DNA from: Bradymonadia bacterium
GTDB lineage: Bacteria; Myxococcota_A; Bradymonadia; REDH01
Assembly (NCBI GenBank): GCA_047629415.1
Contig: JBLHWZ010000004.1
Location: 1 to 61,753, forward strand
Reading direction: 5' to 3'
Length of the DNA: 61,753 nt
This document shows positions 31,431 to 53,758 of the stretch, piece after piece. The notes under the pieces were generated by a model. It ran no database searches. It was not told the origin of the DNA and worked only from the letters and a program-made list of their open reading frames with translations. The position numbers were made by a program, and so were the translations under genes. How positions within the stretch are numbered: the first letter of the stretch is position 1; each line of letters starts with the position of its first letter.

Positions 31431-31503
31431 TGGATAGGCTTTCCCGTACGTGTCAGCATCTCGACCGTAACCAATGTGTCCACCCACTCCCGGGAACTTC
31501 GTC

Positions 31504-33912
31504 ATGAAACGCTCGCCTATTAAACGCTTCGCTCTCTGTCTTGTCTCTATGGCCGGATGGATGGTCCTCGCCGGTGCCGATGGCGATGGGTGCAACTCAG
31601 ACTACACGCCGCCAGAGGGCTGCCCCGAGATCTACTCGCCCGTTTGTGGCGCAGACGAGGTCACGTACGGCAATGCATGCGAAGCCGGCCTCGCCGGAAC
31701 GACGGTCGCCGCCGAAGGCGAATGCGAGATCGTGACGTGCGACTGCCCGGCGGTCTTCGATCCAGTCTGTGGCGTTGATGGCAACGACTACGGCAACTCC
31801 TGCGAGGCGGGCTGCGCAGGCGTCGAGATCGACTACTCCGGCGAGTGCAGCGAAATCTGCATCTGCCCCGCGATCGATGCGCCAGTGTGCGGTACCGACG
31901 GTGAAACGTACGGCAACAGCTGCGAGGCAGCATGCATCTCGGTCGAGGTCGCCTACGATGGACCTTGTGACTCAGACTGCCTCTGCCCAGACATCTGGGC
32001 TCCCGTCTGTGGAGCCGATGGTGAGACCTACGCCAACGGCTGCGAAGCTGACTGCGCGGAAGTCGCCGTCGTCTCCGACGGTGAGTGTAGCGAGGCCTGT
32101 GAATGCCCTGAGATTTATGCGCCCGTCTGTGGCGACGATGGCTTGACCTACGGCAACGGCTGCGAGGCAGCATGTGTCGCGGTCGAGGTTGCATACGAAG
32201 GTGAGTGCGAGGAAATCTGTGGATGCCCGGAGAACTGGGACCCGGTCTGCGGAACGGACGGCAACACCTACGGCAACGAGTGCGAAGCTCGTTGCGCTGA
32301 CGTTGGCGTGGAGTTCCCCGGCGAGTGCGGTGAGACCTGCGCTTGCCCCGCGGTCTTCGACCCGGTCTGCTCGGTCGACGGCATCACCTACGGCAACGCC
32401 TGTGAGGCTGGCTGCGCGGGTTCTGATATCGCTCACGAGGGCCCCTGCGACGACCCGTGCCTCTGCCCCGACGTGTGGGATCCGGTCTGCTCGGTGGACG
32501 GAGTCACCTATGGCAACGCCTGCGAAGCGGGCTGTGAGGGAGCGGATATCGCTAGTGATGGCGCATGCGGCGATGAGTGCACGTGCCCCGATGTGTGGGC
32601 CCCGGTCTGTGGTAGCGACGGCGAAACCTATGGGAACCGCTGCGAAGCTTCCTGCGCCGATGCCGATGTCGATTACACAGGCGAGTGCCGCTCGCCCTGC
32701 GACTGCCCCGACATCTACGCGCCCGTCTGCGCCGCTGGTGTCGATGGCCCGGTTACTTTGGGGAACGCTTGCGAAGCTGGCTGTGAGGAACTGCGGGTCC
32801 TCTATGAGGGCGAGTGTGAGGAGCGCTCATGCGCCAGCTCAGAGGACTGCCCGGATGGCGAAGTATGTGACCCAATCGACTTCGAGTGCCGCCCATACTG
32901 CGCGGTCGACTGCCTGGTCCCGGAACCGGTTTGCGGAATCGACGGAACTACCTACTGGTGCGGCGAAGAAGACGCCCGCTGTGCAGGCGTTCTTGTTGCC
33001 TACGGCGGTGAGTGCCGTGAAGAGTGTGACTGCCCTCGCGAGTGGGCGCCCGTGTGCGGTGAGGATGGCAATACGTATAGCAATCCGTGTGAAGCTGATT
33101 GCGCTGACGTCAGAGTCATTTACGAGGGCGAGTGCGAGCTCGATTGCGCATGCGACGACAGCTACGACCCGGTCTGTGCCGCTGACGGAACCACTTACTC
33201 CAACGCCTGTGAGGCACGCTGCGACGGCGCTGAGATTCTCTACCGTGGAGAGTGCGGGCCCGCGTGCGACGACACCGGTCGCTGCCCGGATGGCGAACTT
33301 TGTGACCCGATCACCGGAAGCTGTGAGCCGGGATGTGAGATCGCTTGCCTTGTCCCAGACCCAGTCTGCGGTACCGATGGAGTGACCTACTGGTGTGGCG
33401 CGCCTGACGCTGCCTGCCATGGTGTTGAAGTGGCCTACGACGGCGAGTGCCGCGAGGACTGCGTTTGTACCGAAATCTATGCTCCTGTGTGCGGTGTCGA
33501 TGGCGTCACGTACGGTAACGCCTGCGAGGCCGAGTGCGCCGAAGCGCGAGTCGCGTACGAAGGTGAGTGTTCTGAGGACTGCTTCTGTACGGCCGTATTC
33601 GACCCGGTTTGCGGCGAAGATGGGGTCACCTATGGAAACGGGTGCGAGGCTGCCTGTGCTAGTGTCGCCATCGCTTATGACGGCCCGTGCTTCGGCCCGC
33701 CGCATGAGTGCGAATCGAACTCGGACTGCGGCCGCGACGAGTACTGCGACCGCGACGAGTTCTTTTGCGCGCCAATCTGCGTAGTGAGCTGCTTGGTCCC
33801 CGACCCGGTCTGCGGCGACGACGACGTCACTTACTGGTGCGGCGAGGTCGACGCGGAGTGTCACGGCGCCTTGATCGCCTATGACGGACCGTGTGAGGAG
33901 CCGGCTCCGTAG
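31504..33912 (+). CDS. Secreted multi-Kazal serine protease inhibitor domain protein (17 Kazal-like domains)
   Basis: Signal peptide ending LAGADGDGC; repeated CxCPxxxxPVCGxDGxTYxNxCEAxC...GxC. Confidence 0.93.
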   Translation: MKRSPIKRFALCLVSMAGWMVLAGADGDGCNSDYTPPEGCPEIYSPVCGADEVTYGNACEAGLAGTTVAAEGECEIVTCDCPAVFDPVCGVDGNDYGNSCEAGCAGVEIDYSGECSEICICPAIDAPVCGTDGETYGNSCEAACISVEVAYDGPCDSDCLCPDIWAPVCGADGETYANGCEADCAEVAVVSDGECSEACECPEIYAPVCGDDGLTYGNGCEAACVAVEVAYEGECEEICGCPENWDPVCGTDGNTYGNECEARCADVGVEFPGECGETCACPAVFDPVCSVDGITYGNACEAGCAGSDIAHEGPCDDPCLCPDVWDPVCSVDGVTYGNACEAGCEGADIASDGACGDECTCPDVWAPVCGSDGETYGNRCEASCADADVDYTGECRSPCDCPDIYAPVCAAGVDGPVTLGNACEAGCEELRVLYEGECEERSCASSEDCPDGEVCDPIDFECRPYCAVDCLVPEPVCGIDGTTYWCGEEDARCAGVLVAYGGECREECDCPREWAPVCGEDGNTYSNPCEADCADVRVIYEGECELDCACDDSYDPVCAADGTTYSNACEARCDGAEILYRGECGPACDDTGRCPDGELCDPITGSCEPGCEIACLVPDPVCGTDGVTYWCGAPDAACHGVEVAYDGECREDCVCTEIYAPVCGVDGVTYGNACEAECAEARVAYEGECSEDCFCTAVFDPVCGEDGVTYGNGCEAACASVAIAYDGPCFGPPHECESNSDCGRDEYCDRDEFFCAPICVVSCLVPDPVCGDDDVTYWCGEVDAECHGALIAYDGPCEEPAP

Positions 33913-39866: not shown

Positions 39867-42863
39867 CTAGGCCTCGTTCGCGAGCTTCTCACCAATCTTG
39901 TTCGCGAGCGCCATCAGCGGCAGCATCGGGTTTCCACCCGGCGAGATCGGCATCAGCCCTGTGTCGGCAACGTAGAGGTTCTCGACGCCGTAGACCGCAC
40001 CGTCGGAATCACAAACGTGGCGGTCACGGTCTGCACCCATCGGCGTCGTGCCGAACGCATGCTGTGAGCCGGTAGTGAAGTCGGCAGGGCCGAGCTCCTC
40101 GGCGCGCAGCGCCTCGACGTCGTCGAGGTCGTAGAGGGTCTGGAACGAGCTGTTCATGCCCGTGTAGACCGTGTGCGCTCCCGAGTGGAAGAGCAGCTCG
40201 GCAGTCAGCGCCGTGGCTTCCTTCATACGCCGCGCGTCGCCCTGACCCAGGTTGTACGTGACGTCTTTGCCACCGCCGGGCAGCGCGCGAACGGAGCCGA
40301 CAGAGTCGTCTCCGCTGACCCACGCATCGAAGACCGACATGTTGCGGTAGTTGGCTAGGTGCTCCTTGTAGCGCGCCCCGATGCCCGGGAACTTCGCCGC
40401 GATGATTGGCGCGTTCACCCAGAGGGTCTCGAGCTTGATGCCCTGCTCTTCAAGGAAGTGGGTGGAGTGATAGCCCTGCGTGGCGCCCATCCAGGGATTC
40501 ACTACCTCGTCGTACTCGCCTAAGGTGTAGATTCCGGGGTGCACGCGCAGGTTCTTGCCGATCAGTTTGTTCTTGAGGCGGCTGCGCTGCATGATCACCG
40601 GAGTGCTCAAGCAACCTGCGGCGATGACCGTGGTCTTCGCTGTAATGCGGACCTTGTGCAGCTTCTTGCCCGTCTCGGGGCAGGTGGTCCAACCGACCGC
40701 ACCAGCGCAGCGATTCTCGCGCATGATGAGCTTGTGGATGTGCACCGAGGTCATGACGCGGCCGCCGTTCTCGATGAACTCCGGCACGATCGCGAAGTCG
40801 GGGCTATTCTTCGCGCCGTTCGGGCAACCTACGATGCAACGCGCCGAGCCTTTGCAGCCGGTAACCGCTCGGCGAATGGGTTCGGCGTCGATGCCCATGG
40901 CGTCTGCGCCAATCTTGAACAGCGCGTTCCGGCGACCCTGAATCTCGGGAGGCGTTGGCTCCACGCGGAAGACCTCCTCGACTTCCTCGTAGTGCCGAAG
41001 CATGTCCTCGGACGTCATCTCGACGCCGTGTTCGCGGTTCCATCGTCTCACCTGATAGTCAGGCATTCGGAGGCAGATCTGACAGTTGAAGACCGCGCCT
41101 CCGCCAAGGACCTTCGTGGTCAGCGTGGGCATGATGATGTTGCCGCGCGTTGTGCGCAGCCCGCTGTCCCAGAAGTGCTTATTGAACGTGTCGAAGATGT
41201 CCTCGGAGAACTCCGAGGGGTCGGCGACATCGCCCGCGTCGACCATGATGACGCGCTTGCCACTCTTCGCGAGCTGCCGAGCCGCCACCGCTCCACCAGG
41301 TCCGGAGCCGATGACGAGGAAGTCACAGTGCTCGTTGATGTCGCGGTCGTAGTCTGACGCCCGCTCGATACCCGGGTGATGCTTCGAGGAGGGCTCTACC
41401 TCGTCAGCGTTTTTTTTTTCGGGATTGAACGCGCTGGTCAGAACCGGCGGGAGGAACCCAGCGGGCACCGCAGCTTCCAGTTTCTTGAGCGCGCTCTTCA
41501 CGAAGCCCTTTGTCACCGAAGCGATCGGGGCGCGCTCGGCGTAGTAGCTCGCGATGACGTCCTCGAAAGACTCGAGGAAGTACTCCACCTCTTCGTCCGA
41601 CAGAACCACCGGCGGAAGGATCTTGATCGCATTGAGCGTTGCACCGGGCACCTGCACGATGATGCGCTTTTCGCGGTACAAGTCGACGTTCACGGCGGCG
41701 CCGAAGGCGGCCGGATCGGCAGCGCGCATTAGCGACTGCTGCAGTTTGAGACCCAGGTTCGCGGAGTCGCGGAAGTAGATCACCTGAAGCAGGCCTTGGC
41801 CTTCGATGCGATCGATGACGTCGTACTTCTCAGCGATGGCTTCGAGGCCGTCGCGGATGACGTGGCCGAGCTGCGTGGCGCGCGCCGGAGCATCCATCTC
41901 CTTGAGGAGGTCGATGTTCGCGAGGCCTGCAGCCATCGCCAAGTTGTTCTCGGCGAAGGTCGAAAAGTAGACAGGCCCGCTCGTGAAACCGGAGTAGATC
42001 TTGTTGTAGAGTTCCTCGGTCAGCATGAGCGCTGAGACCGGAACCGTGCCGCCCGAGAGAATCTTGGAGACCCAGAGCATGTGCGGGCGGATGCCTTTGT
42101 CGAGCGAGGCGAACCATGGACCCGTTCGGCAGAGACCAGTCTGCACTTCGTCAGCGCAGAGCAGCGTTCCGTGCTCTTCGCAGAGCCGCTCGGCTGCCTT
42201 GAGGTACTCTTCGGTCATGACGACGCCGCTCATTCCCTGAACAGGCTCAAAGAAGAAGCCAGCGACGTCGCCCTTGCTGAGCTCACGCTCCAGCTGCTCG
42301 ATGTCGTTCGGACGAATCGGCGTACACACCGGCATCAACGGCTCCATATTCTCGCGGAGCTCGGGAGAGCCGCAGATGGAGACGCCAGCGTAGGTGCGGC
42401 CGTGGAACGCGCCCTCAAGATAGAGCATACGCCGGCGGCCCGTGGCGAATCGCGCGAAGCGAATCGCGAGGTCGGTCGCCTCGGAGCCCGTGTTCGAGAA
42501 CAGGCACTTCGTGTAGCTCGGGCCGGCAATCTCAAGGAGCTGCTCGGCAAGGAGACCACTAAGAACCGGCGCGTTGACGATCGTCAGGTTCGGGATGTCC
42601 ATCTCGAGGACATCTTTCAGCGCTTGATGGATGCGCGGGTTGTTACGGCCGGTCAAAAATACGCCGCCGCCCGACAAAAGGTCGAGGTACTCGTCGCCGT
42701 CCTCGGCGACGAGGCTCGACCCTGTCGCAGACTTGTACACCGAGTTGAAGCCGCCCAGCTCGAGCAGGCTTAGCATCTTCGGGTGGACGTGCTTCTTGGC
42801 GAGGTGGTCGCTCGAAGAGATGTGCTCTTCGATGACTTGCTTCATGGACTTGCGTTCGGTCAC
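39867..42863 (-). CDS. Fusion of class III PLP aminotransferase (HpnO-like) and GMC oxidoreductase
   Basis: N-half: YLDLLSGGGVF..GRN, NTGSEA, AFHGRT, EPVQG, DEVQTG, SKILSGG (PLP Lys). C-half: VIGSGPGG, LGGGAVFN, CKGSARCIVGCPNGAK, HAFGTTPMG, NLYVAD, NPML. Confidence 0.9.
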   Translation of the reverse strand: MTERKSMKQVIEEHISSSDHLAKKHVHPKMLSLLELGGFNSVYKSATGSSLVAEDGDEYLDLLSGGGVFLTGRNNPRIHQALKDVLEMDIPNLTIVNAPVLSGLLAEQLLEIAGPSYTKCLFSNTGSEATDLAIRFARFATGRRRMLYLEGAFHGRTYAGVSICGSPELRENMEPLMPVCTPIRPNDIEQLERELSKGDVAGFFFEPVQGMSGVVMTEEYLKAAERLCEEHGTLLCADEVQTGLCRTGPWFASLDKGIRPHMLWVSKILSGGTVPVSALMLTEELYNKIYSGFTSGPVYFSTFAENNLAMAAGLANIDLLKEMDAPARATQLGHVIRDGLEAIAEKYDVIDRIEGQGLLQVIYFRDSANLGLKLQQSLMRAADPAAFGAAVNVDLYREKRIIVQVPGATLNAIKILPPVVLSDEEVEYFLESFEDVIASYYAERAPIASVTKGFVKSALKKLEAAVPAGFLPPVLTSAFNPEKKNADEVEPSSKHHPGIERASDYDRDINEHCDFLVIGSGPGGAVAARQLAKSGKRVIMVDAGDVADPSEFSEDIFDTFNKHFWDSGLRTTRGNIIMPTLTTKVLGGGAVFNCQICLRMPDYQVRRWNREHGVEMTSEDMLRHYEEVEEVFRVEPTPPEIQGRRNALFKIGADAMGIDAEPIRRAVTGCKGSARCIVGCPNGAKNSPDFAIVPEFIENGGRVMTSVHIHKLIMRENRCAGAVGWTTCPETGKKLHKVRITAKTTVIAAGCLSTPVIMQRSRLKNKLIGKNLRVHPGIYTLGEYDEVVNPWMGATQGYHSTHFLEEQGIKLETLWVNAPIIAAKFPGIGARYKEHLANYRNMSVFDAWVSGDDSVGSVRALPGGGKDVTYNLGQGDARRMKEATALTAELLFHSGAHTVYTGMNSSFQTLYDLDDVEALRAEELGPADFTTGSQHAFGTTPMGADRDRHVCDSDGAVYGVENLYVADTGLMPISPGGNPMLPLMALANKIGEKLANEA
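41409..41419 (-). other. A10 homopolymer and A_AAA_AAC slippery site at the domain junction
   Basis: mRNA CCC GAA AAA AAA AAC GCT GAC; T run at 41410-41419 on the + strand. Confidence 0.6.
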
Positions 42864-44038
42864 GCTTGGCCTTCCGTAACGGGTGGGATTCGGGGCGCGG
42901 GGTATTCCCGCTGGTATCCGTAAGGGGTGAAGGCATTTTGCCAGCGCTCCCAGACGAAGTCTTTCAAGTCTTGGTCAATCGTCAGCTTGTTCCGCTTGTA
43001 GCCCTTCAGGGACTCCACGTACTCGCCGATGACTTCGTAGTATTTCTCTTTGTCCGGCAGATCGAACTTCTCGTAGATGTCCTTCATGACGGACATCTCG
43101 TTACCGCAGAGGTCCTCGTACGCGATCTCGTAGTAGTTCTCTGGCGGGATGAGGTGCTTGTCCTCGTTCATACGTTCAAAGATGCGCTCGCCGAGCATCG
43201 CGGTCTGCTCTTGCCGCTCGCCTTCCCAGTTCTCTTCGGGAAGGTGGAAGAAGTTCTCCCAGTCCGTATGCGAGCGCATGTGCAACGTGGAAGCGAAGCA
43301 CTCGTACGGGTTGCGGTGGATGTGCACGAACTTGGCGTTCGGGTACATCTCAAGAATCATGCGGATTCTGGCTGCATGGGTGCATGACTTGATGACGACA
43401 CGCTTGCCGCCAGTCGAGATCATGACCTTTTTGATCAGGTACTCAAGTCCATCTTTCCATCGTTGGCGCTCCTTGTCGGTGCACTCGATGAAGTCGATGT
43501 ACTTGGAGTACTTCGCCATGTTGTCGGGGAACATGAACGAGACGTAGGGCGAGAGCCCGTGCAGCTTCGTCAGCGCGATTTCATCTTCAGCGGCTTCGAA
43601 CCACCCGTGTGCGACGTTGTCGTAGGTGCGCGTCTCAGTGAGCAGGCCACCGGTCAGCTTCGGAACGAACTTCTCGCCCGTTAGGAACGAGGTGGGGAAG
43701 ACGCACTGGTAGACGGTTGTGAACGTGTGGTTGGGGTCGCGGCCCAACAGATTGTGCATGTGGGTCGTGCCCGAGCGCCAGTGGCCCAGGATGAAGAGCG
43801 GCGTTGGATCCACATCCATTGCAGCGAGCTGGCGTGCGTAACGCGCGTCCTCGAAGCGGCCGAGCAACATGGACGGAAGGCTCCAGGCGCTGATCCAGGC
43901 GAAACGGTGGAAATACGTAGCGTCGATCTTCCACTTGTTGTCGTTCAGCATCTTGAGCCAGTCTTGCAGCTCGATGCCTGTGATCAACTGGTCGGTGGAC
44001 CAGCGATTTTCGACTTCCGTAACTCGGCGTTTTTCCAT
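42860..44038 (-). CDS. PAPS-dependent sulfotransferase (Sulfotransfer_3, Stf3-like)
   Basis: FILGHWRSGTTHMHNLL (5'-PSB loop), AKFVHIHRNPYECFAS (3'-PB); GTGA overlap with the downstream gene. Confidence 0.9.
   Translation of the reverse strand: MEKRRVTEVENRWSTDQLITGIELQDWLKMLNDNKWKIDATYFHRFAWISAWSLPSMLLGRFEDARYARQLAAMDVDPTPLFILGHWRSGTTHMHNLLGRDPNHTFTTVYQCVFPTSFLTGEKFVPKLTGGLLTETRTYDNVAHGWFEAAEDEIALTKLHGLSPYVSFMFPDNMAKYSKYIDFIECTDKERQRWKDGLEYLIKKVMISTGGKRVVIKSCTHAARIRMILEMYPNAKFVHIHRNPYECFASTLHMRSHTDWENFFHLPEENWEGERQEQTAMLGERIFERMNEDKHLIPPENYYEIAYEDLCGNEMSVMKDIYEKFDLPDKEKYYEVIGEYVESLKGYKRNKLTIDQDLKDFVWERWQNAFTPYGYQREYPAPRIPPVTEGQA

Positions 44039-50131: not shown

Positions 50132-53754
<3,623 letters not shown>

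Positions 53755-53758
<4 letters not shown>

Follow-up and report, generated by a model that had tools for sequence, protein, structure and literature searches.

To our knowledge, programmed slippage outside mobile elements and phages is described for a handful of bacterial genes, namely dnaX, magnesium chelatase and a few secretion-system genes. Runs of nine A or T are reported as sites of efficient slippage by bacterial RNA polymerase, whose elongation complex holds an RNA-DNA hybrid of 9-10 bp (PMC5009743, PMC1088944). In dnaX of Thermus thermophilus an A9 run is placed within the tau open reading frame (ORF), the two other frames meet a stop soon after it, and gamma is produced at about 1:1 (PMC5009743, PMC1088944); the presence of two tRNA-Lys genes was linked to polymerase slippage over ribosomal shifting in that organism (PMC5009743). 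In the two-ORF dnaX and magnesium chelatase genes grouped into GeneTack clusters by Antonov et al. (2013), a poly-A of 7-11 is located at the junction and the second ORF (ORF2) is in the -1 frame, and reporter shifting rises with run length, being 10%, 40% and 63% for 7, 9 and 11 A (PMC3711429). Here we surveyed a stretch of 61,753 bases from a Bradymonadia bacterium (positions 1 to 61,753 of contig JBLHWZ010000004.1, assembly GCA_047629415.1; hereafter the window), in which one gene fuses a class-III aminotransferase with a GMC oxidoreductase and carries a run of ten A (A10) at the junction of the two modules. This run is probably a programmed slippage site, with slippage of RNA polymerase as the favoured route.

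The fusion gene (39867..42863, on the minus strand, as are all features of the locus given below) is a single ORF of 998 aa which starts at a GTG (42863); the public gene call starts from an ATG six codons in and has 992 aa. Its first module holds an Aminotran_3 domain (PF00202; 41553..42740, residues 42-437) with an E-value of 6.8e-70 and a score of 236 bits against a Pfam gathering cut-off of 30.5. K267, the Lys of the conserved SK motif, is invariant across 21 fused homologs, and we take it to be the pyridoxal phosphate lysine of the aminotransferase module. The domain is followed by a conserved C-terminal extension (41420..41552, residues 438-483, ...PIASVTKGFVKSALKKLE..PP.L), which is common to fused, split and stand-alone forms of the enzyme, and the stand-alone forms end shortly beyond it. 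The GMC oxidoreductase module (39903..41324, residues 514-987) comprises GMC_oxred_N and GMC_oxred_C (PF00732 and PF05199), which score 127 and 72 bits, above the gathering score, and its FAD-binding Rossmann motif GSGPGG is invariant among the fused homologs.

The run (41410..41419) is seen as T10 on the plus strand, and the minus-strand mRNA around it reads CCC GAA AAA AAA AAC GCT GAC GAG GTA G. The 0 frame, GAA AAA AAA AAC, codes for E484 K485 K486 N487, and the heptamers A_AAA_AAA and A_AAA_AAC both lie in phase within the run. The -1 frame reads AAA CGC TGA and is closed by this TGA (41404..41406) two codons past the run; the +1 frame reads ACG CTG ACG AGG TAG and is closed by the TAG (41396..41398) four codons past it. 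One extra A, or a -1 ribosomal shift, would give a product of 488 aa from the GTG with the tail EKKKR, and one A fewer or two more would give a product of 490 aa with the tail EKKTLTR. A first-pass annotation of this DNA had described the A10 at the junction with stops close behind in both other frames, the IS1-type A_AAA_AAC motif and short products ending in EKKKR or TLTR, and the sequence reads as it stated. It had also named the run length in DNA as a check; contigs from four public DNA runs, two of them possibly of the source sample, cross the window run without a gap, and therefore the A10 is not an assembly slip of this record.

The locus is like Thermus dnaX in that the bacterium is GC-rich, a run of 9-10 A is placed inside one long ORF, the long product results from standard decoding, closely following stops in both other frames would define a short product, and two tRNA-Lys genes are present (PMC5009743, PMC1088944); in the genome of the window these are UUU and CUU. 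Unlike dnaX, the gene is a metabolic two-enzyme fusion and not a replicase subunit, its short product would be a complete enzyme and not a truncated subunit, and both the occurrence and the efficiency of slippage, as well as a use for the two proteins, are inferred from the sequence.

No other homopolymer in the window (62% GC) exceeds 7. Across the 5.95-Mb genome, three A/T runs have a length of 8, no run has 9, and this A10 is the single one of 10. By pattern search the junction run is the only A/T run of at least 9 in each of the assemblies G000, G001, G002 and G008 (4.5-6.4 Mb each); G415, which belongs to another family, has 17, and the aminotransferase/GMC junction is the place of one of these. 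The earlier remarks that no other homopolymer was this long and that lysine is mostly encoded by AAG are both borne out: outside the run the window gene has 38 AAG and 8 AAA codons (8/46 AAA), and AAA accounts for 73 of the 757 Lys codons (9.6%; AAG 90%) outside the run when these run-bearing genes are taken together. The run is further extended by A's of the flanking codons, which are GAA, CAA, GGA or GCA before it and AAC, AGC, ACG or AGT after it. The residues flanking it vary (E/Q/G/P/A/S/D/I before and N/S/K/T/E/P after) and the run itself is kept. Selection at the junction is, by comparison of these genes, acting on the nucleotides, with the A10 as the probable recoding signal under selection.

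The search for orthologs of the fusion took in 61 related genomes. Full-length fused orthologs were found in G001 (75% identity), G008 (73%) and G002 (64-67%, two matches within one open frame), and all three, like every one of the 4 fused orthologs of the family, carry A9 or A10 at the corresponding place of the linker. Metagenome contigs were scanned with peptide motifs of the aminotransferase C-terminal region (alignment A2), which made the scan blind to the run. Just behind the aminotransferase module, A7-A10 is present in 16 of the 19 loci returned, namely six with A10, eight with A9 and one each with A8 (L137) and A7 (L140), and G415 contributes one further locus with A10. After removal of two exact duplicates (the L131 sequence equals that of the G008 locus, and L134 and L135 share an identical overlap) the distinct run-bearing loci number 19, and 17 of these have A9 or A10; the GC content is 51% in L140 and 59-70% in the others. 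The orthologs thus keep the run and not the mixed AAG codons which the first-pass annotation had named as the contrary outcome. An earlier contig scan with the full-length alignment A1 drew on general aminotransferase motifs, and the 80 loci it returned were essentially unrelated class-III aminotransferases, among which L031 alone was useful.

At the protein level 21 fused homologs were found in the database, with identity down to ~47%, and 15 of them carry an [EQ]KK or KKK motif in a linker which is otherwise variable and unalignable. Run length is equal within three close pairs of loci (99.7%, 91% and 86% identical). A maximum-likelihood tree was built from the aminotransferase parts with 25 rows, five short or duplicate rows being left out. 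The run-bearing loci are dispersed over the whole ingroup and the run-free forms are nested among them; many deep forks of the tree are unresolved and the order of events is not fixed by it.

Six distinct loci have both halves in one frame (the window, L002, L003/L131, L004, L130 and L136), and in thirteen the GMC half is in the -1 frame (L132, L133, L134/135, L137-L141, L143-L146 and L153); in none of the 19 distinct run-bearing loci is it in the +1 frame. These thirteen are split exactly by -1 at the run. On the tree the in-frame state needs two changes, one in the clade of the window's family and the other in L136. What the DNA shows directly is the run with its stops, the conservation of both, and the two arrangements of frame. 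Splits of the -1 kind only are what programmed frameshifting, or slippage in transcription, leaves as its signature when relatives are compared. The family is like two-ORF dnaX and magnesium chelatase in having poly-A at an ORF junction, ORF2 in the -1 frame and fused single-ORF homologs elsewhere (PMC3711429); unlike them, both polarities occur within the one family, together with conserved +1-frame stops.

In the split loci the 0 frame stops 2-17 codons past the run. In the 12 split loci tabulated, L153 being left out, the GMC (-1) frame crosses the run without a stop and continues open as far as the locus reaches, over 131-490 codons. One extra A, or a -1 ribosomal shift, would unite the halves in every split locus and would terminate within 2-8 codons in every in-frame locus. 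The off-frame stops were tabulated for 20 loci, with duplicates counted and L153 left out, and the frames not leading to GMC close within 1-14 codons in 40 of 40 cases, the median being 6; the background in off-frames elsewhere in the same genes is a median of 50 codons, with closure within 17 codons in 25%. Start codons of the GMC frame (ATG, GTG or TTG) between the run and the Rossmann motif are absent in L134/L135 and L140. Most other split loci have GTGs only, which lie inside or within ~20 codons of the VVGSG strand, some with a word like the Shine-Dalgarno (SD) sequence, and in L138 and L139 an ATG that lacks an SD stands ~17 codons ahead of the motif. An independent start codon of the GMC half was thus considered for the split loci, and in most of them none is plausible.

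The mechanism which we favour starts from the length of the run. An rA:dT run of 9-10 is as long as the RNA-DNA hybrid, and therefore slipping would give mRNAs with extra or fewer A's: the RNA polymerase would slip on the T10 template and release mRNAs with one or more extra A's, or with fewer. In the window organism the unslipped mRNAs, and those with 3n extra A's, would give the 998-aa fusion, and the other slipped mRNAs would meet the TGA or the TAG, so that the aminotransferase alone would be made, with ~488-490 aa. The opposite would hold for most other lineages, standard decoding giving the aminotransferase alone and one extra A, equal to the -1 frame, giving the fusion. A -1 ribosomal shift on the in-phase A_AAA_AAA or A_AAA_AAC would yield the same two proteins; it may contribute, and it may be the main route where the run has only 7-8 A. 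The polymerase is favoured because 17 of the 19 runs are A9 or A10, beyond the 7 which a heptamer needs, because a nearby stop closes the +1 frame as well in every locus, because no conserved structure flanks the runs, and because both tRNA-Lys genes are present, as in Thermus. A nearby +1 stop would matter only if transcripts of several lengths are made.

Conserved RNA structure around the runs was not found in the 17 loci analyzed (mean z -0.5 downstream and -0.2 upstream), as is expected if the run alone suffices. The first-pass annotation had pointed to a candidate stem, CGAGG-N9-CCTCG (41385..41403, with the arms CGAGG at 41399-41403 and CCTCG at 41385-41389), as a possible stimulator. 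The 70 nt downstream of the run gave a z of -0.64, 56 of 200 dinucleotide shuffles being as good, and the stem is not conserved across loci. The wider claim made there, that recoding yields both a free aminotransferase and the fusion, is supported by the conservation and by the -1 splits, and the role given to the stem is not. A setting of subunit stoichiometry by the site, also proposed there, is conjectural.

The same two products would be made without any slip of the polymerase if the mRNA were faithful and the ribosome shifted by -1 on A_AAA_AAA or A_AAA_AAC, or slid on the AAA codons, since ribosomes can slide on poly-A. An in-phase heptamer is present in every run-bearing locus, no split locus departs from -1, the runs of A7 and A8 have stayed in the phase that is required, and the A8 locus L137 has a hairpin with a z of -2.17. 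L142, which has no A-run, has an in-phase G_GGA_AAA and its GMC half in the -1 frame, and A_AAA_AAG, A_AAA_AAA and A_AAA_AAC are among the known shift heptamers (PMC3711429). All this is in line with a purely translational route. However, 17 of the 19 runs extend 2-3 bases beyond a heptamer, to a length equal to the 9-10 bp hybrid (PMC5009743, PMC1088944), a conserved stimulatory structure was not found, and the conserved nearby +1 stop has no role in a pure -1 shift. We therefore hold it unlikely that the ribosome acts alone. Phase variation, in which a hypermutable DNA tract would toggle between a fused state (GMC on) and a split state (GMC off) by replication slippage, was also raised at first pass and is a good deal less likely still. 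Both states do occur among the relatives, the tree calls for at least two origins of the in-frame state, and poly-A is slippery for DNA polymerase too (PMC3711429, PMC1088944). Against it, only the 0 and -1 arrangements are found and never the +1, the domain families are those of a cytoplasmic, metabolic enzyme and not of a surface structure, and 9-10 A would cause polymerase slippage whatever the state of the DNA (PMC5009743). The equal run length in the 99.7%, 91% and 86% pairs and in the contigs of the four DNA runs also lends no support to phase variation, although this is a weak point as consensus contigs hide minority variants.

It may lastly be supposed that nothing is recoded, that the Lys-Lys(-Lys) linker is kept for a reason at the protein level with the run as a by-product, and that the splits are separate genes or assembly errors. 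The [EQ]KK or KKK motif shared by 15 of the 21 fused homologs within a variable linker is what such a reading would start from. It has to face the facts that AAA makes merely 9.6% of the Lys codons elsewhere in the genes, that the run reaches into non-Lys codons (GAA, CAA, GGA, AAC, AGC, ACG) while the residues vary, that four whole genomes have no other A9+ run, that errors would give +1 as well as -1 splits and no conserved stops, and that the GMC halves are without plausible start codons. This explanation is in our view very hard to believe.

Several points weigh against slippage by the polymerase as the reading of this locus. The loci are related and the counts overstate their independence, the deep lineages being roughly 10-12. 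A run search for sequencing data matching the locus gave 13 DNA runs and 0 RNA runs, and the DNA data are contigs, which hide minority run lengths; the habitats in which this DNA occurs are sea ice and brine. An in-phase A_AAA_AAA is contained in every run, so that sequence alone cannot separate polymerase from ribosome; the shortest runs (A7 in L140 and A8 in L137) stand in the phase needed for a ribosomal shift, and L137 adds a hairpin 5 nt downstream and L142 a heptamer in place of the run. The KK motif is carried by the fusion proteins P0010-P0017, which are known at the protein level. Further, there are forms without the run, which are fused in L115, L116 and L147, stand-alone in L005 and L031, and split in L142; from the existence of run-free relatives it follows that two products from one gene are not indispensable.

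These forms without the run deserve a closer description. G120/G256 and L147 are fused and have neither the KK motif nor the run. The stand-alone aminotransferases, in G004 and in an Oligoflexia metagenome-assembled genome (L031), have 55-58% identity and end a few to ~50 residues past the conserved C-terminal extension. Among the short database homologs, 14 of 24 end at most 16 residues after the KK motif, and therefore the split form is widespread. A free aminotransferase ending here and the fusion would accordingly seem to be both natural and functional architectures. L142 is split by -1 without an A-run and has G_GGA_AAA in phase at the junction (1804-1815), which may represent a switch to ribosomal -1 frameshifting. 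In L137, with A8, a strong hairpin begins 5 nt after the run (1826-1880; z -2.17, 4 of 200 shuffles as good). The family may thus use both routes in different lineages, as dnaX does.

Three side observations belong to these loci. The hairpin of L137 contrasts with the A9/A10 loci. Four short proteins related to L142 (P0072-P0075) end soon after a conserved G-K pair. P0067, a relative of L140 with 354 aa, passes from the aminotransferase tail straight into the GMC start (…TSSKYSDYSGP…GSGPGG) and is then unlike GMC; it may be a stop-less variant or come from a poor contig.

A further step may be taken, which we put forward tentatively and as a possibility. The sulfotransferase-aminotransferase-GMC operon would use polymerase slippage as a setter of ratio, a fixed fraction of transcripts giving the free aminotransferase and the rest the fusion. 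The obligate aminotransferase dimer could then carry zero, one or two oxidase arms, and the reactive aldehyde formed when an alcohol is oxidised would be channelled to amination. The default product would be flipped by single-base changes of the run with neither protein lost, and some lineages would have swapped to a ribosomal -1 shift, by a short run with a hairpin or by G_GGA_AAA, as in dnaX. If this is true, the site would be without precedent among metabolic enzyme pairs.

Other described cases were also compared. Like the OrfA/OrfAB arrangement of insertion sequence (IS) elements (IS1, IS3, IS630), the family has an A-run or A_AAA_AAC/G and would give the upstream ORF alone or a trans-frame fusion; in these elements the slippage may be either ribosomal or transcriptional (PMC5009743, PMC3711429, PMC1088944). 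Unlike them, the gene is placed in a chromosomal operon with a sulfotransferase gene and is not mobile, and the fusion is the default product in the window. In mxiE/spa13 of Shigella and tssM of Citrobacter cellular genes are concerned, as here, and polymerase slippage on a homopolymer joins ORFs or gives two lengths (PMC5009743, PMC1088944, PMC4256274), as is proposed for the present locus. Those are, however, secretion-system genes of pathogens in single lineages, and the site described here is kept to ~50% protein identity. The Aminotran_3/GMC pair is not mentioned in the main text of PMC3711429, where 'aminotran' occurs in other clusters only, and its supplementary list of 146 candidate clusters could hold one. 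No report of slippage in an aminotransferase/GMC gene was found in the recoding literature searched, which did not extend to those supplementary clusters. The proposed mechanism is of a known kind, that of Thermus dnaX, two-ORF dnaX, magnesium chelatase and IS elements. The depth of its conservation, the occurrence of both polarities and run-free forms in one family, and the short product as a complete enzyme are unusual.

If the slippage is true, a deeply conserved case is added in ordinary metabolism. The family provides natural controls in its in-frame, -1, run-free fused and stand-alone members. It is also suited for asking why a cell wants a free enzyme together with a fusion, and how, in evolution, slippage by the polymerase and by the ribosome come to substitute for one another. 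For annotation pipelines, either the fusion is called, or an aminotransferase with a start-less or mis-started GMC gene, and one product would be missed either way.

A sulfotransferase gene (Sulfotransfer_3; 42860..44038, minus strand) is located upstream of the fusion gene, and its stop overlaps the GTG of the latter (GTGA). Nearly all related loci long enough to cover this region (L002, L003, L031, L130-L147) have a sulfotransferase immediately upstream of the aminotransferase, and therefore both genes are probably in the same operon. A conserved pathway of three enzymes is suggested by this association. Among solved structures, the aminotransferase comes closest to 4ppm_A (861 aa, 'Aminotransferase') and to putrescine aminotransferases; for the GMC half, the matches to solved chains of pyranose oxidase and cellobiose dehydrogenase are weak. 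From the families alone, it is a reasonable guess that the GMC oxidase would make an aldehyde and that the omega-type transaminase would make an amine from it. Such a putative alcohol-to-amine cascade, of GMC oxidase and then omega-transaminase, is of interest for biocatalysis. The stand-alone form L031 likewise has an upstream sulfotransferase, and in the cyanobacterial outgroup L033 a distant sulfotransferase (28% identity) is located downstream of the aminotransferase.

Some observations of the genomes were also recorded. Tolerance of A/T runs of at least 9 differs between families, with 17 in G415 against one each in four genomes of the window's family. C/G homopolymers of 10-17 are numerous in G000 (contigs C24, C27, C81, C157, C239, C377, C389, C405 and C470). 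Several of them lie at contig extremities, as in C27 (32087-32096 of 32097) and C389 (1-17), and these tracts may be artefacts of sequencing or assembly, or tracts that break assemblies. On the plus strand of the window, 31474-33912 codes for a protein of 812 aa with 13 Kazal-type inhibitor repeats, and 50132-53758 codes for a protein of 1208 aa with 10 MopE-type metal-binding repeats.

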